From the IMG/VR virus record IMGVR_UViG_2802429234_000007, positions 1 to 27,778 of that record: DNA of 27,778 nt. One strand, written 5' to 3'. The position numbers and the translations under genes are program-made. How positions within the stretch are numbered: position 1 is the first letter of the stretch; the number at the start of each line of letters is the position of its first letter. Shown here piece after piece: positions 1-27,778 of this stretch. The notes under the pieces were generated by a model. The model did no database searches. It had not been told where the DNA came from and saw only the letters and a list, made by a program, of their open reading frames with translations. This DNA is from a virus (Duplodnaviria > Heunggongvirae > Uroviricota > Caudoviricetes).

Positions 1-545
1 TTTTTTTTTCCCAACCGATAGATGTCTATATACCAAATTTGCCAAGATACAGAAATAAAGTCAACGTTCATGAAAGACTTTTCAATCGTAGCCATTCCAT
101 GAAAGGCTGCTAAACCACGTGGAGCTTAGGTGTCAGTCATCAGCGTTGTTGGTGGAGCCGATTTTCAAATATTATTTAATATGATAAAAATAAAATTTTT
201 GCTTTATAATCAAAATGATATAAAAAAACCTAATCATCTTACGGTTCTAAAAACTGTAATTACCTGAAATTCCTGTCAATCATTTCAGTTTCTGTTCTCC
301 GCAAAGCCGCCAGTAATGGCGCGGTCTGGCGCTCAGGTTTGTAGAAAAATAAAACTGAAAAAATTTCCAGATCCAGAAACCGCAGGCGGGTGCGGTGTAG
401 CGACGTTTTTGTCTGCGAAAGATTTATTTTGTCGGTGCATCGCTGCGCCAGCGCAGCGCCCGCACGATCTTTTATATGTGTTGCGTTGGGTTAATTTGTT
501 GTTTTAAGTGCTGAGAACGCGTTCTGCTGCGTCTGAGGATGGGTA

Positions 546-569
546 TAAAAAAGCCCGCATTATGCGGGC
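546..569 (-). terminator. Rho-independent terminator at the end of the tail operon
   Basis: Minus strand reads GCCCGC-loop-GCGGGC followed by TTTTTT, 13 nt after the stop of the spike gene at 582. Confidence 0.6.
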
Positions 570-581
570 GTGTGGTCATGG

Positions 582-2285
582 TCAGGCAATTATATTCTGG
601 TACTTGCTCCGGGTCTGCCCGGCTTTCGTCGCCGTCTGGGTGAACGCGTCGGCATTAGTTGGCGTCCCAACGGTGGGGTGCGAATGGCTCGCGCATTGCT
701 GTGCCAGTTCTGCCAGTAAATCAATGGTATCCAACATCATGGTCAGGGCGTTGATACTCTCACTGCCAATATGGACAGTTGCCCCCATGACCTGCTGACC
801 GCCAGCGGCCACTGATTTACGCAGTGCGGCAATTTTCTCTGTCAGGCTTTCGCCAACCTCCACGGCTACAGCACCGCCCACTTTAGTGGACTGCTGTCCT
901 GCTATGTCCGTTTCTTCGTTTCCTTCAATACTGGCCAGCCTGTTACCTTTCACCGCCTGGCTATAATCACCGGCACTTACCTGCTGGATGGCTCCGGCCA
1001 GCAATGTGGTGGTTCCCAGTACCGTGGTTTTATCCGTGGCTTTCACCGTGGTTTCACGGCTGACCAGTTCGCGCTGTTCCGTATCGGCTTTTACGGTTCG
1101 CGCCATCGATGTTTCACTGATGGTCTGATCGGTCTGTCTTACCCAGTCTCCTGCCTGAGTCACCCGCTGGGAAACTTCTTCCCGCTGCTGCTGCAATTGC
1201 TCACCGGGTTTAACGTCCGGCAGGCTGGTACCATCCGGCAGCGTCTGCCTGATAAAGGGTTTATCCGGTCTGCCTCCCGTGAATGCAACCTCAACCAGCG
1301 TCCCTTCTGGCGGAAACTGAAACATACCTGAATCATTCCCGGCCATTGGCACCGGCAGCGGCACCGCTGAGTAAACAGGCGTCTGATTGTCCGGGTTTCC
1401 GTCTGCGTCAAGCAGCTGAACGTCCACGGCGTAACGTGGCCGGAAGGGATCGGCAAAATTACCGCTTTTTACCGGCTCTGAATGCGCCACGACTCTGGCC
1501 ATCTTTGGCAAATGAAGCCCGGATGCCAGTTCCGGGTAATGGCTTTCAATCTGCCGTTGTGCTGGTGTTTTCTGCAAAGGTTTACCCGTTGCGCGGTTTC
1601 TCGGCGTCCATGTGATCGCCATCGTGTCATTAGTCAGGTGAACTTTAGTCACGCGTTCACCGTTCATCTCCCCCCCTGGCCGCATAGTCTGGATCATTGG
1701 TAATGTCACAGAGTTACCACCAGCAGCCCCCTGGCTGAACTCTGAAGGGATTTCTACGGAACGACCGGCAAACAATGATTTTTCTGCGCCGCCGACGTAA
1801 AGCGAACCATCAGGCAACTGGTACCAGATGTAATCCTGGATACTGAACGCCCTGCCCAGATTGTTCAGCAACTGATAGCCGGTACCGTTATGGGTAAAAT
1901 GTGGGATAGGGGTATCGCTGTACTCTGCATCAGGCACACTGACCGTGATCCCGCTGTTTTCTTCCAGCCAGCTGGCAACCTCGCGTAAAGTTGGATGTTG
2001 AAACGAACATGGCCACATCCTTTCAAACACACCTACCAGTTCACGAATGAACAGACGCTGAAAACCGTTTTCAGCGGGCTGCGATCGCTCCACATACCCC
2101 GTAAACCAGCGCAAAAGCAGCTCGGTATACCCCACATCCAGCCGCACCAGTTTTCCGGTGTAATCGGTTGTTGTCTCTGCGGTGATGAAGCCCCGGCCGC
2201 AGCTGTTCAGCTCCAGTACCAGGCTGGCATCCACGAGGTGAACTTCATTCGTTGAAAGGTAAAGGCGTTTTACTGGTTTCATCAT
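582..2285 (-). CDS. Baseplate central spike protein (gpV/VgrG-like OB-fold) with ~270-aa N-terminal extension and C-terminal HSH apex
   Basis: Motif FPPEGTLVEVAFTGGRPDKPFIRQ matches the gpV/VgrG OB-fold signature (GxxVxVxFxxGDPDxPxI type); C-terminal ASHSHP resembles iron-binding spike apex; last gene of tail operon. Confidence 0.55.
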   Translation of the reverse strand: MMKPVKRLYLSTNEVHLVDASLVLELNSCGRGFITAETTTDYTGKLVRLDVGYTELLLRWFTGYVERSQPAENGFQRLFIRELVGVFERMWPCSFQHPTLREVASWLEENSGITVSVPDAEYSDTPIPHFTHNGTGYQLLNNLGRAFSIQDYIWYQLPDGSLYVGGAEKSLFAGRSVEIPSEFSQGAAGGNSVTLPMIQTMRPGGEMNGERVTKVHLTNDTMAITWTPRNRATGKPLQKTPAQRQIESHYPELASGLHLPKMARVVAHSEPVKSGNFADPFRPRYAVDVQLLDADGNPDNQTPVYSAVPLPVPMAGNDSGMFQFPPEGTLVEVAFTGGRPDKPFIRQTLPDGTSLPDVKPGEQLQQQREEVSQRVTQAGDWVRQTDQTISETSMARTVKADTEQRELVSRETTVKATDKTTVLGTTTLLAGAIQQVSAGDYSQAVKGNRLASIEGNEETDIAGQQSTKVGGAVAVEVGESLTEKIAALRKSVAAGGQQVMGATVHIGSESINALTMMLDTIDLLAELAQQCASHSHPTVGTPTNADAFTQTATKAGQTRSKYQNIIA

Positions 2286-25065: not shown

Positions 25066-25169
25066 TAGTTGTTAATAATCTACAAACGGCAATTATCAGT
25101 ATCTACATTCGAAACAATGCAGAGACTATTTTTAAAATTGTCGTTTGTCAATAATTGCGAACTACAAAC

Positions 25170-25745
25170 ATGACAACTTACAACATCAAGACAGGTGCAC
25201 GCGAAGCAATCGAAAGGGTGTGTGAGGCCTATGGTTTTACATCCAGAATGCAGTTAGCAAATTATCTTGGAATGTCTCCAAGTGCTTTAAGTACACGTAT
25301 CATGCGTGACAACTTTCCTGCTGATTTAGTGCTACTTTGTGCTCTAGAAACAGGAGCTTCTATCTACTGGCTAACCACTGGTGATGGCGTTAGATTTAAT
25401 CAGGTGGCAAGTGATACCACTCGAATCTCAGCCTATAAAATCGAAGGGTCTGATATGGTTCGCCAAGCATCCGTAATTTTCGATAAGACAATACTCCCCA
25501 ACTACAAAGGTGAACTTCAAATAATCAGTGATAGTTCAGTAAGATTTTTCGTAGATATCGCTGATTACCCTGTTACGGACGGTAAGTTCCTTCTTGAGTA
25601 TTCTGGTACGAAAAGCATCAAAGAATTGACGTTACTTCCTGGTAACAAATTGCGGATTGACTGGGGAAAATATCCAGTTGATTGCGACGTATCTGATGTG
25701 CAATTGATTGGGAAGGTTGTGGCCACATACTTAGTGAGTGAGTAA
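25170..25745 (+). CDS. cI: Immunity repressor, phage 186 CI-type (N-terminal HTH, ~191 aa)
   Basis: ERVCEAYGFTSRMQLANYLGMSPSALSTR...CALETGASIYWLTTGDG resembles 186 CI; upstream of int with 1-nt overlap; the ORF-track start at 25155 is TTG, ATG at 25170 preferred. Confidence 0.7.
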   Translation: MTTYNIKTGAREAIERVCEAYGFTSRMQLANYLGMSPSALSTRIMRDNFPADLVLLCALETGASIYWLTTGDGVRFNQVASDTTRISAYKIEGSDMVRQASVIFDKTILPNYKGELQIISDSSVRFFVDIADYPVTDGKFLLEYSGTKSIKELTLLPGNKLRIDWGKYPVDCDVSDVQLIGKVVATYLVSE

Positions 25746-26758
25746 TGGCAGTTCGGAAAATCGAAAGCGGTGAATGGTTGTGCGATCTTCGCCCTAATGG
25801 GGTGAAAGGTAAGCGTATTCGTAAAAAATTCGCCACGAAAGGTGAAGCACTGGCATATGAAAAATATATCGCCAGCGAAATGGAAGGCAAACCCTGGCTG
25901 GGTGAGAAGCAAGATAATCGACGCTTATCAGATCTGATTGAGCAGTGGCATGATCTATATGGTCGAACATTAGCAGATGCCGACCGCATGATGTCGAAAT
26001 TGAAAGGTATTTGTGCTGGTATGGGAAATCCGATTGCAGCACAAATCACAGCGGCGGATTTCAGCCAATACAGAGAAGGTCGCTTAAAGGGTGAAATTCC
26101 GGATATAAATGGACGTTGTATGCCGATACAACCACGGACAGTAAATCATGAGCAACGCTATCTATCTGCCGTATTTGGTACACTAAAAAAACTAGGCCAT
26201 TGGTCGCTTCCAAATCCATTGGCAGGAATTCCAACCTTTAAAGTTGATGAAAAAATGGTTTCTTTTCTTTATTCAGAAGAAATCAAAACTCTTTTACAAT
26301 ATTTATCCGAATCTAATAGCCCGCACGTTCTCATCATCACTAAGATTTGCCTTGCTACCGGTGCAAGGTGGAGTGAAGCGGAAAATCTAGAAGGCTCTCA
26401 AGTTACGCCATACCGTATCACTTACAAAAATACGAAAAGTAGAAAGGTACGTTCTATACCTATCTCAAAAGAGCTTTATAACGAGATACCAAAAAAACGA
26501 GGCCAGTTGTTTACCCCGTGCCGTAAAACTTTCGAGCGTACTGTAGCTAAAGCGGGGATTGAACTGCCTGAAGGCCAGTGTACACATGTATTACGACATA
26601 CATTTGCCAGCCACTTTATGATGAATGGCGGAAACATACTTGTTCTTAAAGAGATTTTAGGCCATTCAGATATAAAAATGACTATGATCTATGCTCACTT
26701 TGCGCCAACGCATCTTGAAGATGTAATAACAAAAAATCCTTTATCATTAATAATTTAG
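25745..26758 (+). CDS. int: Tyrosine integrase (P2/186 Int-type)
   Basis: 337 aa; N-terminus MAVRKIESGEWLCDLRPNGVKGKRIRKKF matches P2 Int pattern; C-terminal HxLRHTFA ... MIYAHF catalytic region. Confidence 0.9.
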   Translation: MAVRKIESGEWLCDLRPNGVKGKRIRKKFATKGEALAYEKYIASEMEGKPWLGEKQDNRRLSDLIEQWHDLYGRTLADADRMMSKLKGICAGMGNPIAAQITAADFSQYREGRLKGEIPDINGRCMPIQPRTVNHEQRYLSAVFGTLKKLGHWSLPNPLAGIPTFKVDEKMVSFLYSEEIKTLLQYLSESNSPHVLIITKICLATGARWSEAENLEGSQVTPYRITYKNTKSRKVRSIPISKELYNEIPKKRGQLFTPCRKTFERTVAKAGIELPEGQCTHVLRHTFASHFMMNGGNILVLKEILGHSDIKMTMIYAHFAPTHLEDVITKNPLSLII

Positions 26759-26764
26759 AGAAAA

Positions 26765-27778
26765 ATGAACCTTACAATCAATCAATGCATCGTTTTATTT
26801 AACATTTTATTTGTGGTTGTTTACATGGGTTATTTATTCAAGATAAATGCATTCAAGATGAATGCTGAACCTCTTACGCATCAACCATTATTCAAAGCCG
26901 CACTGGCAATTCCAATAATTAGTTTTTTTCTGCTCGGATTTGTTGCATGGAATGGTCACAATGTTCAAATCGATACGGAAGGATTTAATAATTTCCTAAA
27001 CATTAGTAAACTTCCTTTAGCTGTTTTATCTTTATCGATTCCACTGGGAGTAGTTGTCAATAATATTCATCGAACAATACAAACAGATAAACAAATCAAA
27101 GAAGCAGAAAAGAAAAACAAAGTGGATTTTTTCTATACCCATAGAAAAAACACTATAGAAGCATTACAACACCTTGAATCTTTAGACATTCCTTTGATAA
27201 AAAAGAACGCAAAATTAGAATTTGAAAATTGTTATTCTACATATCGTAAATGCTATCCTTATGCTTCAACTACTAATAATAATTTTGATGCTTCCAAGGA
27301 CTACATACAAAATGCAGAATTAATTTGGTGCCAACTAGTTGAACTATTTAAAAAAGAAGAAATTAATGACTATACAGAGTTATACACCCATATACATAGC
27401 ATTGAAAAACTATTAGAATTATTGCACAACCTTTATGGACTAAAGCGTTTAGATATTGAAAAACTCTATCAGTGCTCAACCCACGGTGAAGATGAATATA
27501 TTTTATTCTTAAAAACAAAATTTTCGGATGAATTGGATATAAAAAAATATCTACAATCATACTGGCACTTTCATTTAAAAATGGTTGAGATACTTGAATA
27601 TAATTTCACCACTGACTTTGTGCTACTTATGAAGGATATAATAAGTTATTCAATCAATAATCGTGATAGAAAATACCCCTTATTTCAATATCACACTACA
27701 ATTGACGCAAGCGTTCCTCAGTTCATTAAGTTAAAAATCAGCAAAAGAGATCCACAAAATGTCCATGCAGAGTGTTAG
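26765..27778 (+). CDS. AT-rich membrane-anchored protein of unknown function (337 aa), candidate lysogenic-conversion or defence cargo
   Basis: Complete ORF starting 6 nt after the int stop; three N-terminal hydrophobic helices then a ~235-aa Lys/Glu-rich helical domain; much lower GC than the rest of the phage. Confidence 0.6.
   Translation: MNLTINQCIVLFNILFVVVYMGYLFKINAFKMNAEPLTHQPLFKAALAIPIISFFLLGFVAWNGHNVQIDTEGFNNFLNISKLPLAVLSLSIPLGVVVNNIHRTIQTDKQIKEAEKKNKVDFFYTHRKNTIEALQHLESLDIPLIKKNAKLEFENCYSTYRKCYPYASTTNNNFDASKDYIQNAELIWCQLVELFKKEEINDYTELYTHIHSIEKLLELLHNLYGLKRLDIEKLYQCSTHGEDEYILFLKTKFSDELDIKKYLQSYWHFHLKMVEILEYNFTTDFVLLMKDIISYSINNRDRKYPLFQYHTTIDASVPQFIKLKISKRDPQNVHAEC

Follow-up and report, generated by a model that had tools for sequence, protein, structure and literature searches.

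We analyzed a 27,778-nucleotide (nt) stretch of DNA from a tailed virus (Caudoviricetes; IMG/VR record IMGVR_UViG_2802429234_000007), here called the window, which closes with a complete open reading frame (ORF) of 337 amino acids (aa) that begins with ATG and ends with TAG, the final codon of the window. The gene, hereafter the cargo gene, stands at the end of a lysogenic unit that encodes a cI-type repressor and a P2/186-type integrase (Int), with the following layout.

25170..25745, plus strand: gene of a cI-type repressor (PF07022, E 1.8e-24; PF16452, E 5.8e-16), first gene of the lysogenic unit
25745..26758, plus strand: int, gene of a P2/186-type tyrosine integrase of 337 aa (PF24624 Int_N, E 7e-31; PF00589, E 4e-22)
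26759..26764, plus strand: 6-nt spacer AGAAAA between int and the ORF, from direct reading of the sequence
26765..27778, plus strand: cargo gene, encoding a predicted inner-membrane protein of 337 aa (PHROG 17460; 30.3% GC), final gene before the right attachment site attR

Results

The cargo gene and the lysogenic unit

The start codon of int overlaps the stop codon of cI, while the start of cI is itself ambiguous (the NCBI contig has ATG at 25170, whereas the longest ORF begins with TTG at 25155). The spacer between int and the cargo gene is too short for a terminator and displays only a weak Shine-Dalgarno-like GAGA. A terminator-like site was looked for between int and the ORF without any being found, and the first convincing terminator downstream is a copy of the ssrA terminator within attR, 137 nt beyond the ORF stop. 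Considering the 6-nt gap, the stop/start overlaps in relatives and the lack of a terminator ahead of the ssrA copy, we infer that the cargo gene is transcribed together with cI and int. In phage 186, the pL transcript carries cI and int. Promoter-like hexamers occur at chance level in such AT-rich DNA and were hence not used as evidence.

Compositionally, the cargo gene has a GC content of 30.3% (26.6% at third codon positions), as compared to 41.2% (33.7%) for int, 41.6% (37.1%) for cI and 52.2% for the phage backbone (window positions 600-25000). It is a genuine gene and not a chance frame, since there are many homologues (76 from one database, about 1,060 cluster representatives from a second) and the sequence is under purifying selection; moreover, a 1-kb open frame in DNA of 30% GC is improbable by chance. 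Direct reading of the sequence thus agrees with the original prediction, made from the letters of the window, of a complete 337-aa ORF 6 nt past the int stop with no terminator in between. The AT-rich composition unlike the backbone, then judged by eye, is borne out by measurement, and the separate acquisition proposed for the ORF is upheld in the form of an AT-rich cargo joined to the end of the cI-int unit.

The gene lies within a prophage in ssrA

The window is identical base for base to NCBI contig PTRF01000019.1, from which both flanks were recovered, and the exact cargo protein is recorded on several contigs. The right flank contains a 3'-end fragment of ssrA, the gene of transfer-messenger RNA (tmRNA), with its terminator hairpin, and about 600 bp further on glaH(csiD)-lhgO-gabDTP. 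Scans for tRNA/tmRNA and Rfam families returned no complete RNA gene in this flank because only the ssrA 3' fragment is present there; the fragment was instead recognized by reading the sequence and by comparison with the intact tmRNA gene on the left. Outward from the window, the left flank comprises a HinfI-family endonuclease and a cytosine-type methylase, then the intact tmRNA gene and smpB. The attachment site (att) is an 85-bp direct repeat (81/85) consisting of the 3' end and terminator of ssrA, whose left copy lies at the intact tmRNA gene and whose right copy, attR, begins 79 nt past the ORF stop, i.e. 79 nt beyond the end of the window. No further copy was detected within the window at up to three mismatches.

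Because the two ssrA 3' ends form a direct repeat around it, the element is a prophage in ssrA, 186-like (Peduoviridae) and about 30.3 kb long, with the ORF inside. Its order is attL, restriction-modification (R-M) genes, tail and head genes, replication genes, cI, int, ORF and attR, and the cargo gene accordingly occupies what we term the int-att slot, between the int stop at 26758 and att. The locus ssrA is already known as the integration site of the P2-like phages Fels-2 and SopE-phi (PMC3448106). Identity of the flank to E. coli glaH-lhgO does not exceed 95.4%, and the host is therefore an Escherichia-lineage strain. In the phage collection, the best DNA match is Cronobacter phage ESSI-2, with about 74% nucleotide identity across cI-int; there, the same att sequence is located 123 nt after int, with no gene in between. 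Megablast searches against complete E. coli genomes and against phages recovered int fragments only, leaving the ORF unmatched.

Mapping of the att repeats, which had been proposed as a check, hence places the ORF inside the prophage, with no att site between int and the ORF. Two options had been left open at the outset, an insertion between int and att or flanking island DNA; with attR 79 nt past the ORF, the former holds and the latter falls away. That the att site was invisible from the window alone is explained by provirus calls, which often trim it: they frequently end at or just after the family gene, and in a sample of 80 relatives on IMG/VR viral contigs (loci L034-L113), 13/80 stop at its stop codon. 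One of these, L034 (IMG/VR UViG 2541047882_000001), is an identical provirus that ends exactly at the stop codon of the cargo gene, as does the window.

A large family at the int-att junction

The cargo protein matches the phrog_17460 profile over nearly its full length (E 6.5e-41, 141.9 bits, aa 12-325 on profile positions 8-339 of 343) and so belongs to this family, a PHROG without assigned function that adds only a prior sighting in phage and prophage genomes. A word-indexed search recovered 76 homologues across Enterobacterales, every one annotated as hypothetical, and an exhaustive profile search 1,062 cluster representatives (50% identity) at E<=1e-3, or 522 at 1e-10. The length of the protein is steady at about 320-380 aa across the roughly 1,060 clusters. 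Among phage records, 2/50,697 contain a relative, both Peduoviridae-type genomes. The 90% cluster of the window ORF has 415 members; of the 15 displayed, 13 are Salmonella enterica sequences marked 'partial', 67-219 aa long and located at contig ends. Assemblies in draft form frequently break inside or beside the family gene, perhaps owing to a repeat or to poor coverage of AT-rich DNA, and the partial copies are an assembly artefact.

Outside this PHROG, no known family emerged. Pfam returned only two chance-level matches at E<=1, MetOD2 (E 0.08) and DctQ (E 0.16), both far under the cut-offs, and ten distant relatives were likewise without a Pfam match. The cargo protein matched no NCBIfam family, and a sequence-profile search of the PDB remained at chance level (best E 0.019, unc-13). 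A structure search of BFVD recovered nothing at E 0.001 or better, leaving confident AlphaFold models without a known fold. A profile of the N-domain alone, searched for fusions to known effector domains, found short fragments only and no fusions. Literature searches by accession numbers or PHROG identifier returned nothing, and a search by context nothing specific to the family. The lack of a recognizable motif noted in the original prediction thus extends to profile searches of Pfam, NCBIfam and PADLOC and to structure; the result that had been named as counting against it, a match to a housekeeping membrane family, was not obtained above cut-off in NCBIfam or Pfam.

In the IMG/VR sample, at least 72/80 relatives directly follow a 186-type int, 69 of them scored automatically and three having an over-extended start call, and most of the remaining loci lack upstream sequence. 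Similarly, all four homologues for which the encoding contigs were looked up (eight places) display the cI-int-gene arrangement, at several chromosomal sites flanked by glaH/csiD, a ROK-family gene, an invasin gene and others, and among species-representative genomes 5/11 have this arrangement and two more a degraded version. Between int and the gene, the spacing varies from overlaps of up to 16 nt to gaps of up to about 16 nt, ATGA-type overlaps being common. Exceptions away from int comprise Budvicia, where the gene neighbors gpD at the other prophage end; L104, where it adjoins gpA; Leclercia, where thiM and a T5orf172 gene are its neighbors; Pseudomonas, where it follows umuC; and a different prophage in Xenorhabdus. 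The cargo family is consequently the usual occupant of the int-att slot across a wide set of 186-like prophages. The insertion originally proposed between int and att is therefore right as to position, though not a one-off event.

Domain organization of the cargo protein

Hydropathy analysis identified hydrophobic segments around aa 5-25, 42-62 and 80-99, and all three coincide with helices of the full-length AlphaFold2 (AF2) model (mean pLDDT 93, pTM 0.75). Together with the alignment, four parts can be distinguished.

26777..26839, plus strand: first transmembrane segment (TM1, aa ~5-25; hydropathy and AF2 helix 3-26), 26% mean pairwise identity
26888..27061, plus strand: conserved membrane core of TM2 (aa 42-62), an acidic loop (aa 63-81) and TM3 (aa 80-99), 53-73% mean pairwise identity, from alignment and conservation
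27062..27169, plus strand: juxtamembrane helix (aa 100-135), basic, probably cytoplasmic, with the signature NNIHRTIQTxxQIxEAxxKNxxDxFYxHRK
27170..27775, plus strand: C-terminal domain (aa 136-337), alpha/beta and variable (mean pairwise identity about 21%), without a match to a known fold and probably cytoplasmic

Conservation is concentrated at the membrane. Across 45 sequences, some only 22% identical to the window protein, 23 columns are invariant, nearly all of them in TM2, the loop, TM3 and the following helix, where mean pairwise identity is 52-73%. Those of the membrane core include Q40, F43, P50, G58, W62, G73, F77, S81, K82 and P84, and the loop, which is acidic and probably periplasmic, contains the motif GFNNFLxISKLPL (aa 63-81). 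Given its poor conservation, TM1 is probably a plain anchor, and some relatives have one additional N-terminal hydrophobic helix. In the juxtamembrane helix, N100, H102, R103, T104, I105, Q106, Q110, I111, K117, N118, D121, H126 and K128 are invariant, and the signature is retained in the most distant cluster representatives. AF2 models aa 91-135 as a single continuous helix running from TM3 into the cytoplasm, and the helical periodicity of the invariant polar residues, along one face in the model, suggests a conserved interaction face.

Mean net charges in the family are positive for loop 1 (+0.9) and the juxtamembrane helix (+2.0) and negative for loop 2 (-1.6). The topology is thus probably N-out/C-in, with a short periplasmic N-terminus, three transmembrane helices and a large cytoplasmic C-domain. 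The latter is modeled with confidence (pLDDT 93.3, pTM 0.88) as five long helices with beta-hairpins. Accordingly, of the anatomy first proposed, the three N-terminal transmembrane segments are supported by hydropathy and AF2, and the purely helical soluble domain gives way to a mixed alpha/beta one.

Alleles are replaced as cassettes

In close pairs, the ratio of nonsynonymous to synonymous substitution rates (dN/dS) is about 0.14 for the N-domain and about 0.34 for the C-domain; both parts are therefore constrained, the C-domain less so. The identity of Int and that of the neighboring allele are nearly uncorrelated (Spearman ~0.2), with 58 locus pairs in which Int is at least 95% identical and yet the C-domain at most 40% identical. 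In the three locus pairs tested, DNA identity breaks off at the int 3' end, or just short of it, and is regained where the cargo ends or within about 80 nt of that point, hence the gene behaves as an allelic cassette bounded by int and att. Shuffling between domains was not observed, as an N-domain identity of 85% or more was never paired with a C-domain identity of 40% or less; whole genes are exchanged and not domains.

Other genes of the slot and the prophage ends

Additional genes in the int-att slot of relatives are mostly known defense genes, as listed here with the remaining occupants.

L017, 7387-9690: PifA (868 bits), in the int-att slot
L047, 5646-7220: OLD/AbiL-like ATPase (HEC-04), in the int-att slot
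L048, 5221-6189: AbiTii, in the int-att slot
L076, 2754-3746: SMEK/Aga_REase-PNTD protein, between int and the family gene
L092, 5531-8455: gtrA-gtrB-DUF6056 (gtrABC-like, O-antigen modification), downstream of the family gene
L090, 2941-3894: IS transposase, in the int-att slot
L020, 7069-8262; L027-L029, 6184-7377; L110, 4609-5799; L016, 2786-3856; L052, 5111-6181: second AT-rich partner gene (397 or 356 aa)
L004, 11346-12587; L026, 6310-7539; L029, 7740-8981: P4-type integrase (Arm-DNA-bind_3), starting about 300 bp past the family gene

The second AT-rich gene precedes att in particular clades and has no Pfam or PADLOC match; these clades may have a two-gene version of the system. The P4-type integrase, which is found about 300 bp downstream also in approximately 20/80 of the viral loci, belongs to a further island or satellite, inserted in tandem at that att copy. 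The tandem island of L029 includes a retron Ec48-type gene. In a further relative (L014, 3944-4330; CP019275.1, a P2-like phage genome recorded as a circular 'plasmid' of 37 kb), int is followed by a gene for just 128 aa, which match the N-terminal membrane module with 49.5% identity over aa 17-114; cI and int are annotated as frameshifted in this record, and the element is therefore degraded.

At the opposite end of the prophage, a type II R-M pair lies between attL (ssrA) and the tail genes, within the att-bounded prophage and beyond the window.

L008, 10286-11683, left of window position 1: R-M methylase (HTH_17 and DNA_methylase), 465 aa
L008, 11716-12486, left of window position 1: R-M endonuclease of the HinfI family, 256 aa

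With this pair near attL and the ORF near attR, the phage thus has cargo at both ends. Window positions 1-581 (39% GC) are without a long ORF, flanked by a 567-aa tail-region gene (582-2285, minus strand) and the start of the methylase gene outside the window, and may include the R-M promoter region.

Discussion

A candidate anti-phage protein of the lysogen

The cargo family is large and unannotated, yet of a familiar kind, the prophage accessory membrane protein, for which a role in defense is plausible. Since the slot is shared with known defense genes, alleles are replaced in cassette-like fashion and the int-att position is reported as a P2 defense hotspot, we propose, as an evenly balanced judgment, that the cargo protein is a lysogen-expressed anti-phage factor of the inner membrane, acting by exclusion or abortive infection. 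In the searched text of a preprint, 3% of recognized P2 defense systems sit between the integrase and att, a minor hotspot, and 6/8 loci of unassigned function from P4 hotspots protected against phages (bioRxiv 10.64898/2026.02.27.708500).

According to this proposal, the cargo gene would be the third cistron on the cI-int transcript of the lysogen, with termination at the att-borne copy of the ssrA terminator, and its product would protect the lysogen against other phages. The fast-diverging cytoplasmic C-domain would recognize a phage component or infection cue, and the conserved TM2-loop-TM3-juxtamembrane module would act at the membrane, preferably by permeabilizing or depolarizing it (abortive infection) or, alternatively, by blocking genome entry (superinfection exclusion). 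The combination of a putatively cytoplasmic variable part and a conserved membrane core would be arms-race-like. In its most specific form, the proposal amounts to a widespread single-gene anti-phage system, previously unrecognized and native to the 186-like lysogeny operon, with a conserved three-helix effector, the NNIHRTIQT helix and a hypervariable cytoplasmic sensor of novel fold, alleles of which are swapped at int-att for specificity; this we put forward tentatively, at somewhat below even chance.

Several observations weigh against a defensive role. None of the 5,027 models of PADLOC-DB 2.0.0 matched the cargo protein at E<=1, nor did any match ten distant relatives at E<=0.1, and no recognizable effector chemistry (nuclease, TIR or NTPase domain) was found. 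There is no direct signal of positive selection, dN/dS being below 1 in both domains. The topology is deduced from the positive-inside rule only, and, given the chance-level hexamers, the ORF may be transcribed independently of cI and int. The near-exclusive linkage to int is also atypical for defense genes, which roam between hotspots and elements, and could reflect a role specific to lysogeny. Finally, the antiviral prior is moderate because only 15-32% of unknown P2 proteins are predicted to be antiviral in the searched text of the preprint (bioRxiv 10.64898/2026.02.27.708500).

Alternative explanations

Position and composition of the gene are equally typical of lysogen-expressed morons, and the protein may instead serve the host, as a lysogenic-conversion or fitness factor of the membrane (envelope, stress tolerance or virulence) with a logic like that of lambda bor and lom. 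We regard this as unlikely. The high conservation of the periplasmic loop and TM3 would fit contact with a conserved host envelope component, however such a target is hard to reconcile with the extreme divergence of alleles beside near-identical integrases, and the large domain is probably cytoplasmic. Likewise, the gtrA-gtrB-DUF6056 genes of one relative demonstrate that the slot is not restricted to defense, although most identifiable neighbors there are defense genes, and the cargo protein itself matches no envelope-modifying or virulence family.

A role in the phage life cycle, either by modulating integration, excision or induction from a membrane tether or by acting against P4-like satellites at the shared att, appears decidedly unlikely. 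It would account for the nearly constant junction of the gene with the int 3' end, where codons overlap or nearly abut, a tighter association than is typical of mobile defense genes. Nevertheless, the absence of the gene from ESSI-2 and the presence of relatives in merely 2/50,697 phage records imply that it is dispensable for the life cycle, the near lack of correlation between Int and allele identity argues against co-evolution with Int, and some family members are not next to int at all (beside gpD, gpA or thiM, and in Pseudomonas). The P4-type integrase islands about 300 bp downstream in L004, L026, L029 and approximately 20/80 viral loci are congruent with an anti-satellite function, but their tandem position is explained by shared att preference.

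That the ORF is decaying or a functionless hitch-hiker, as the lack of a known domain and the many copies annotated as partial might indicate, is very unlikely given the dN/dS of 0.14-0.34 in close pairs, the 23 columns invariant across 45 sequences, the length maintained across about 1,060 clusters and the pLDDT of 93 for both AF2 models, the partial copies at contig ends being assembly artefacts. A chromosomal origin, as flanking or island DNA or as a housekeeping membrane protein, could be suspected from a composition sharply unlike the phage backbone and from a window ending at the ORF stop codon, but is ruled out by att mapping, with attR 79 nt beyond the ORF and attL and the tmRNA gene on the far side of the prophage, the more so as the gene moves with cI-int into different chromosomal sites, occurs in a P2-like circular element of 37 kb as well as a phage genome record, and matches no housekeeping family.

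Comparison with known systems

Among the memberships that could be tested, the cargo gene belongs only to PHROG 17460 and to the positional class of int-att cargo. The P2 genes old, tin and fun are expressed in the lysogen and exclude lambda, T-even phages and T5, respectively; old and tin are located near cos, and Z/fun in the tail region. The cargo gene resembles these, as well as the P2/P4 hotspots (Rousset et al. 2022, PMC9122126), in being AT-rich cargo at a fixed variable locus that is swapped between similar phages. Unlike old, tin and fun, it is situated between int and att, is predicted to form part of the cI-int unit rather than having its own promoter, and encodes a membrane-embedded protein without sequence or domain relation to theirs. 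In particular, the ATPase/Toprim composition of P2 Old is absent (no AAA, ABC or Toprim match in Pfam and no PADLOC Old match), whereas the neighbor in L047 has these domains.

Small to medium-sized membrane-associated prophage proteins that act at the cytoplasmic membrane against incoming phages include lambda RexB, P22 SieA, T4 Imm, lactococcal Sie2009 and Vibrio K139 Glo, and Sie2009 and Glo are encoded in or beside the repressor-integrase module. On the reading proposed here, the cargo protein would work much as these and the P2 exclusion genes do. It differs from this group in architecture, with a variable alpha/beta domain of 200 aa, predicted to be cytoplasmic, joined to three predicted transmembrane helices by an invariant juxtamembrane helix, and it has no detectable homology to them and no match above chance in Pfam, a library that was not checked for specific Sie or Imm models. 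RexB requires RexA, while the cargo gene is a single gene before att and lacks a PADLOC match, the presence of Rex models among those searched being unchecked; the two-gene Rex-type arrangement was not found in the window, and some relatives have a second unassigned gene of 356 or 397 aa. Equally, the ORF has no GtrA, GT2 or GtrC-type Pfam match as expected for Gtr serotype conversion, these being separate genes in L092. The closest positional counterpart is the int-att slot of P2 phages, for which the preprint names recognizable systems, the cargo family being unmentioned in its searched text (bioRxiv 10.64898/2026.02.27.708500). Here, the cargo family is the common resident of this slot in 186-type phages, with known defense genes added distal to it.

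Significance

Irrespective of function, provirus callers that cut at the family gene lose the att site along with the R-M cargo at the other end. If the proposed function is confirmed, a family of about 1,060 clusters (50% identity), undetected here by Pfam, NCBIfam and PADLOC, would gain a role, and the int-att junction of 186-like prophages would represent a second predictable site for defense mining, beside the cos-proximal P2/P4 hotspots. The family offers an unusually clean genetic set-up for testing this, namely a single gene that divides clearly into a conserved and a variable domain and has many natural alleles next to integrases that are nearly identical, and would then provide a compact model for how membrane-anchored immune proteins couple recognition to action.

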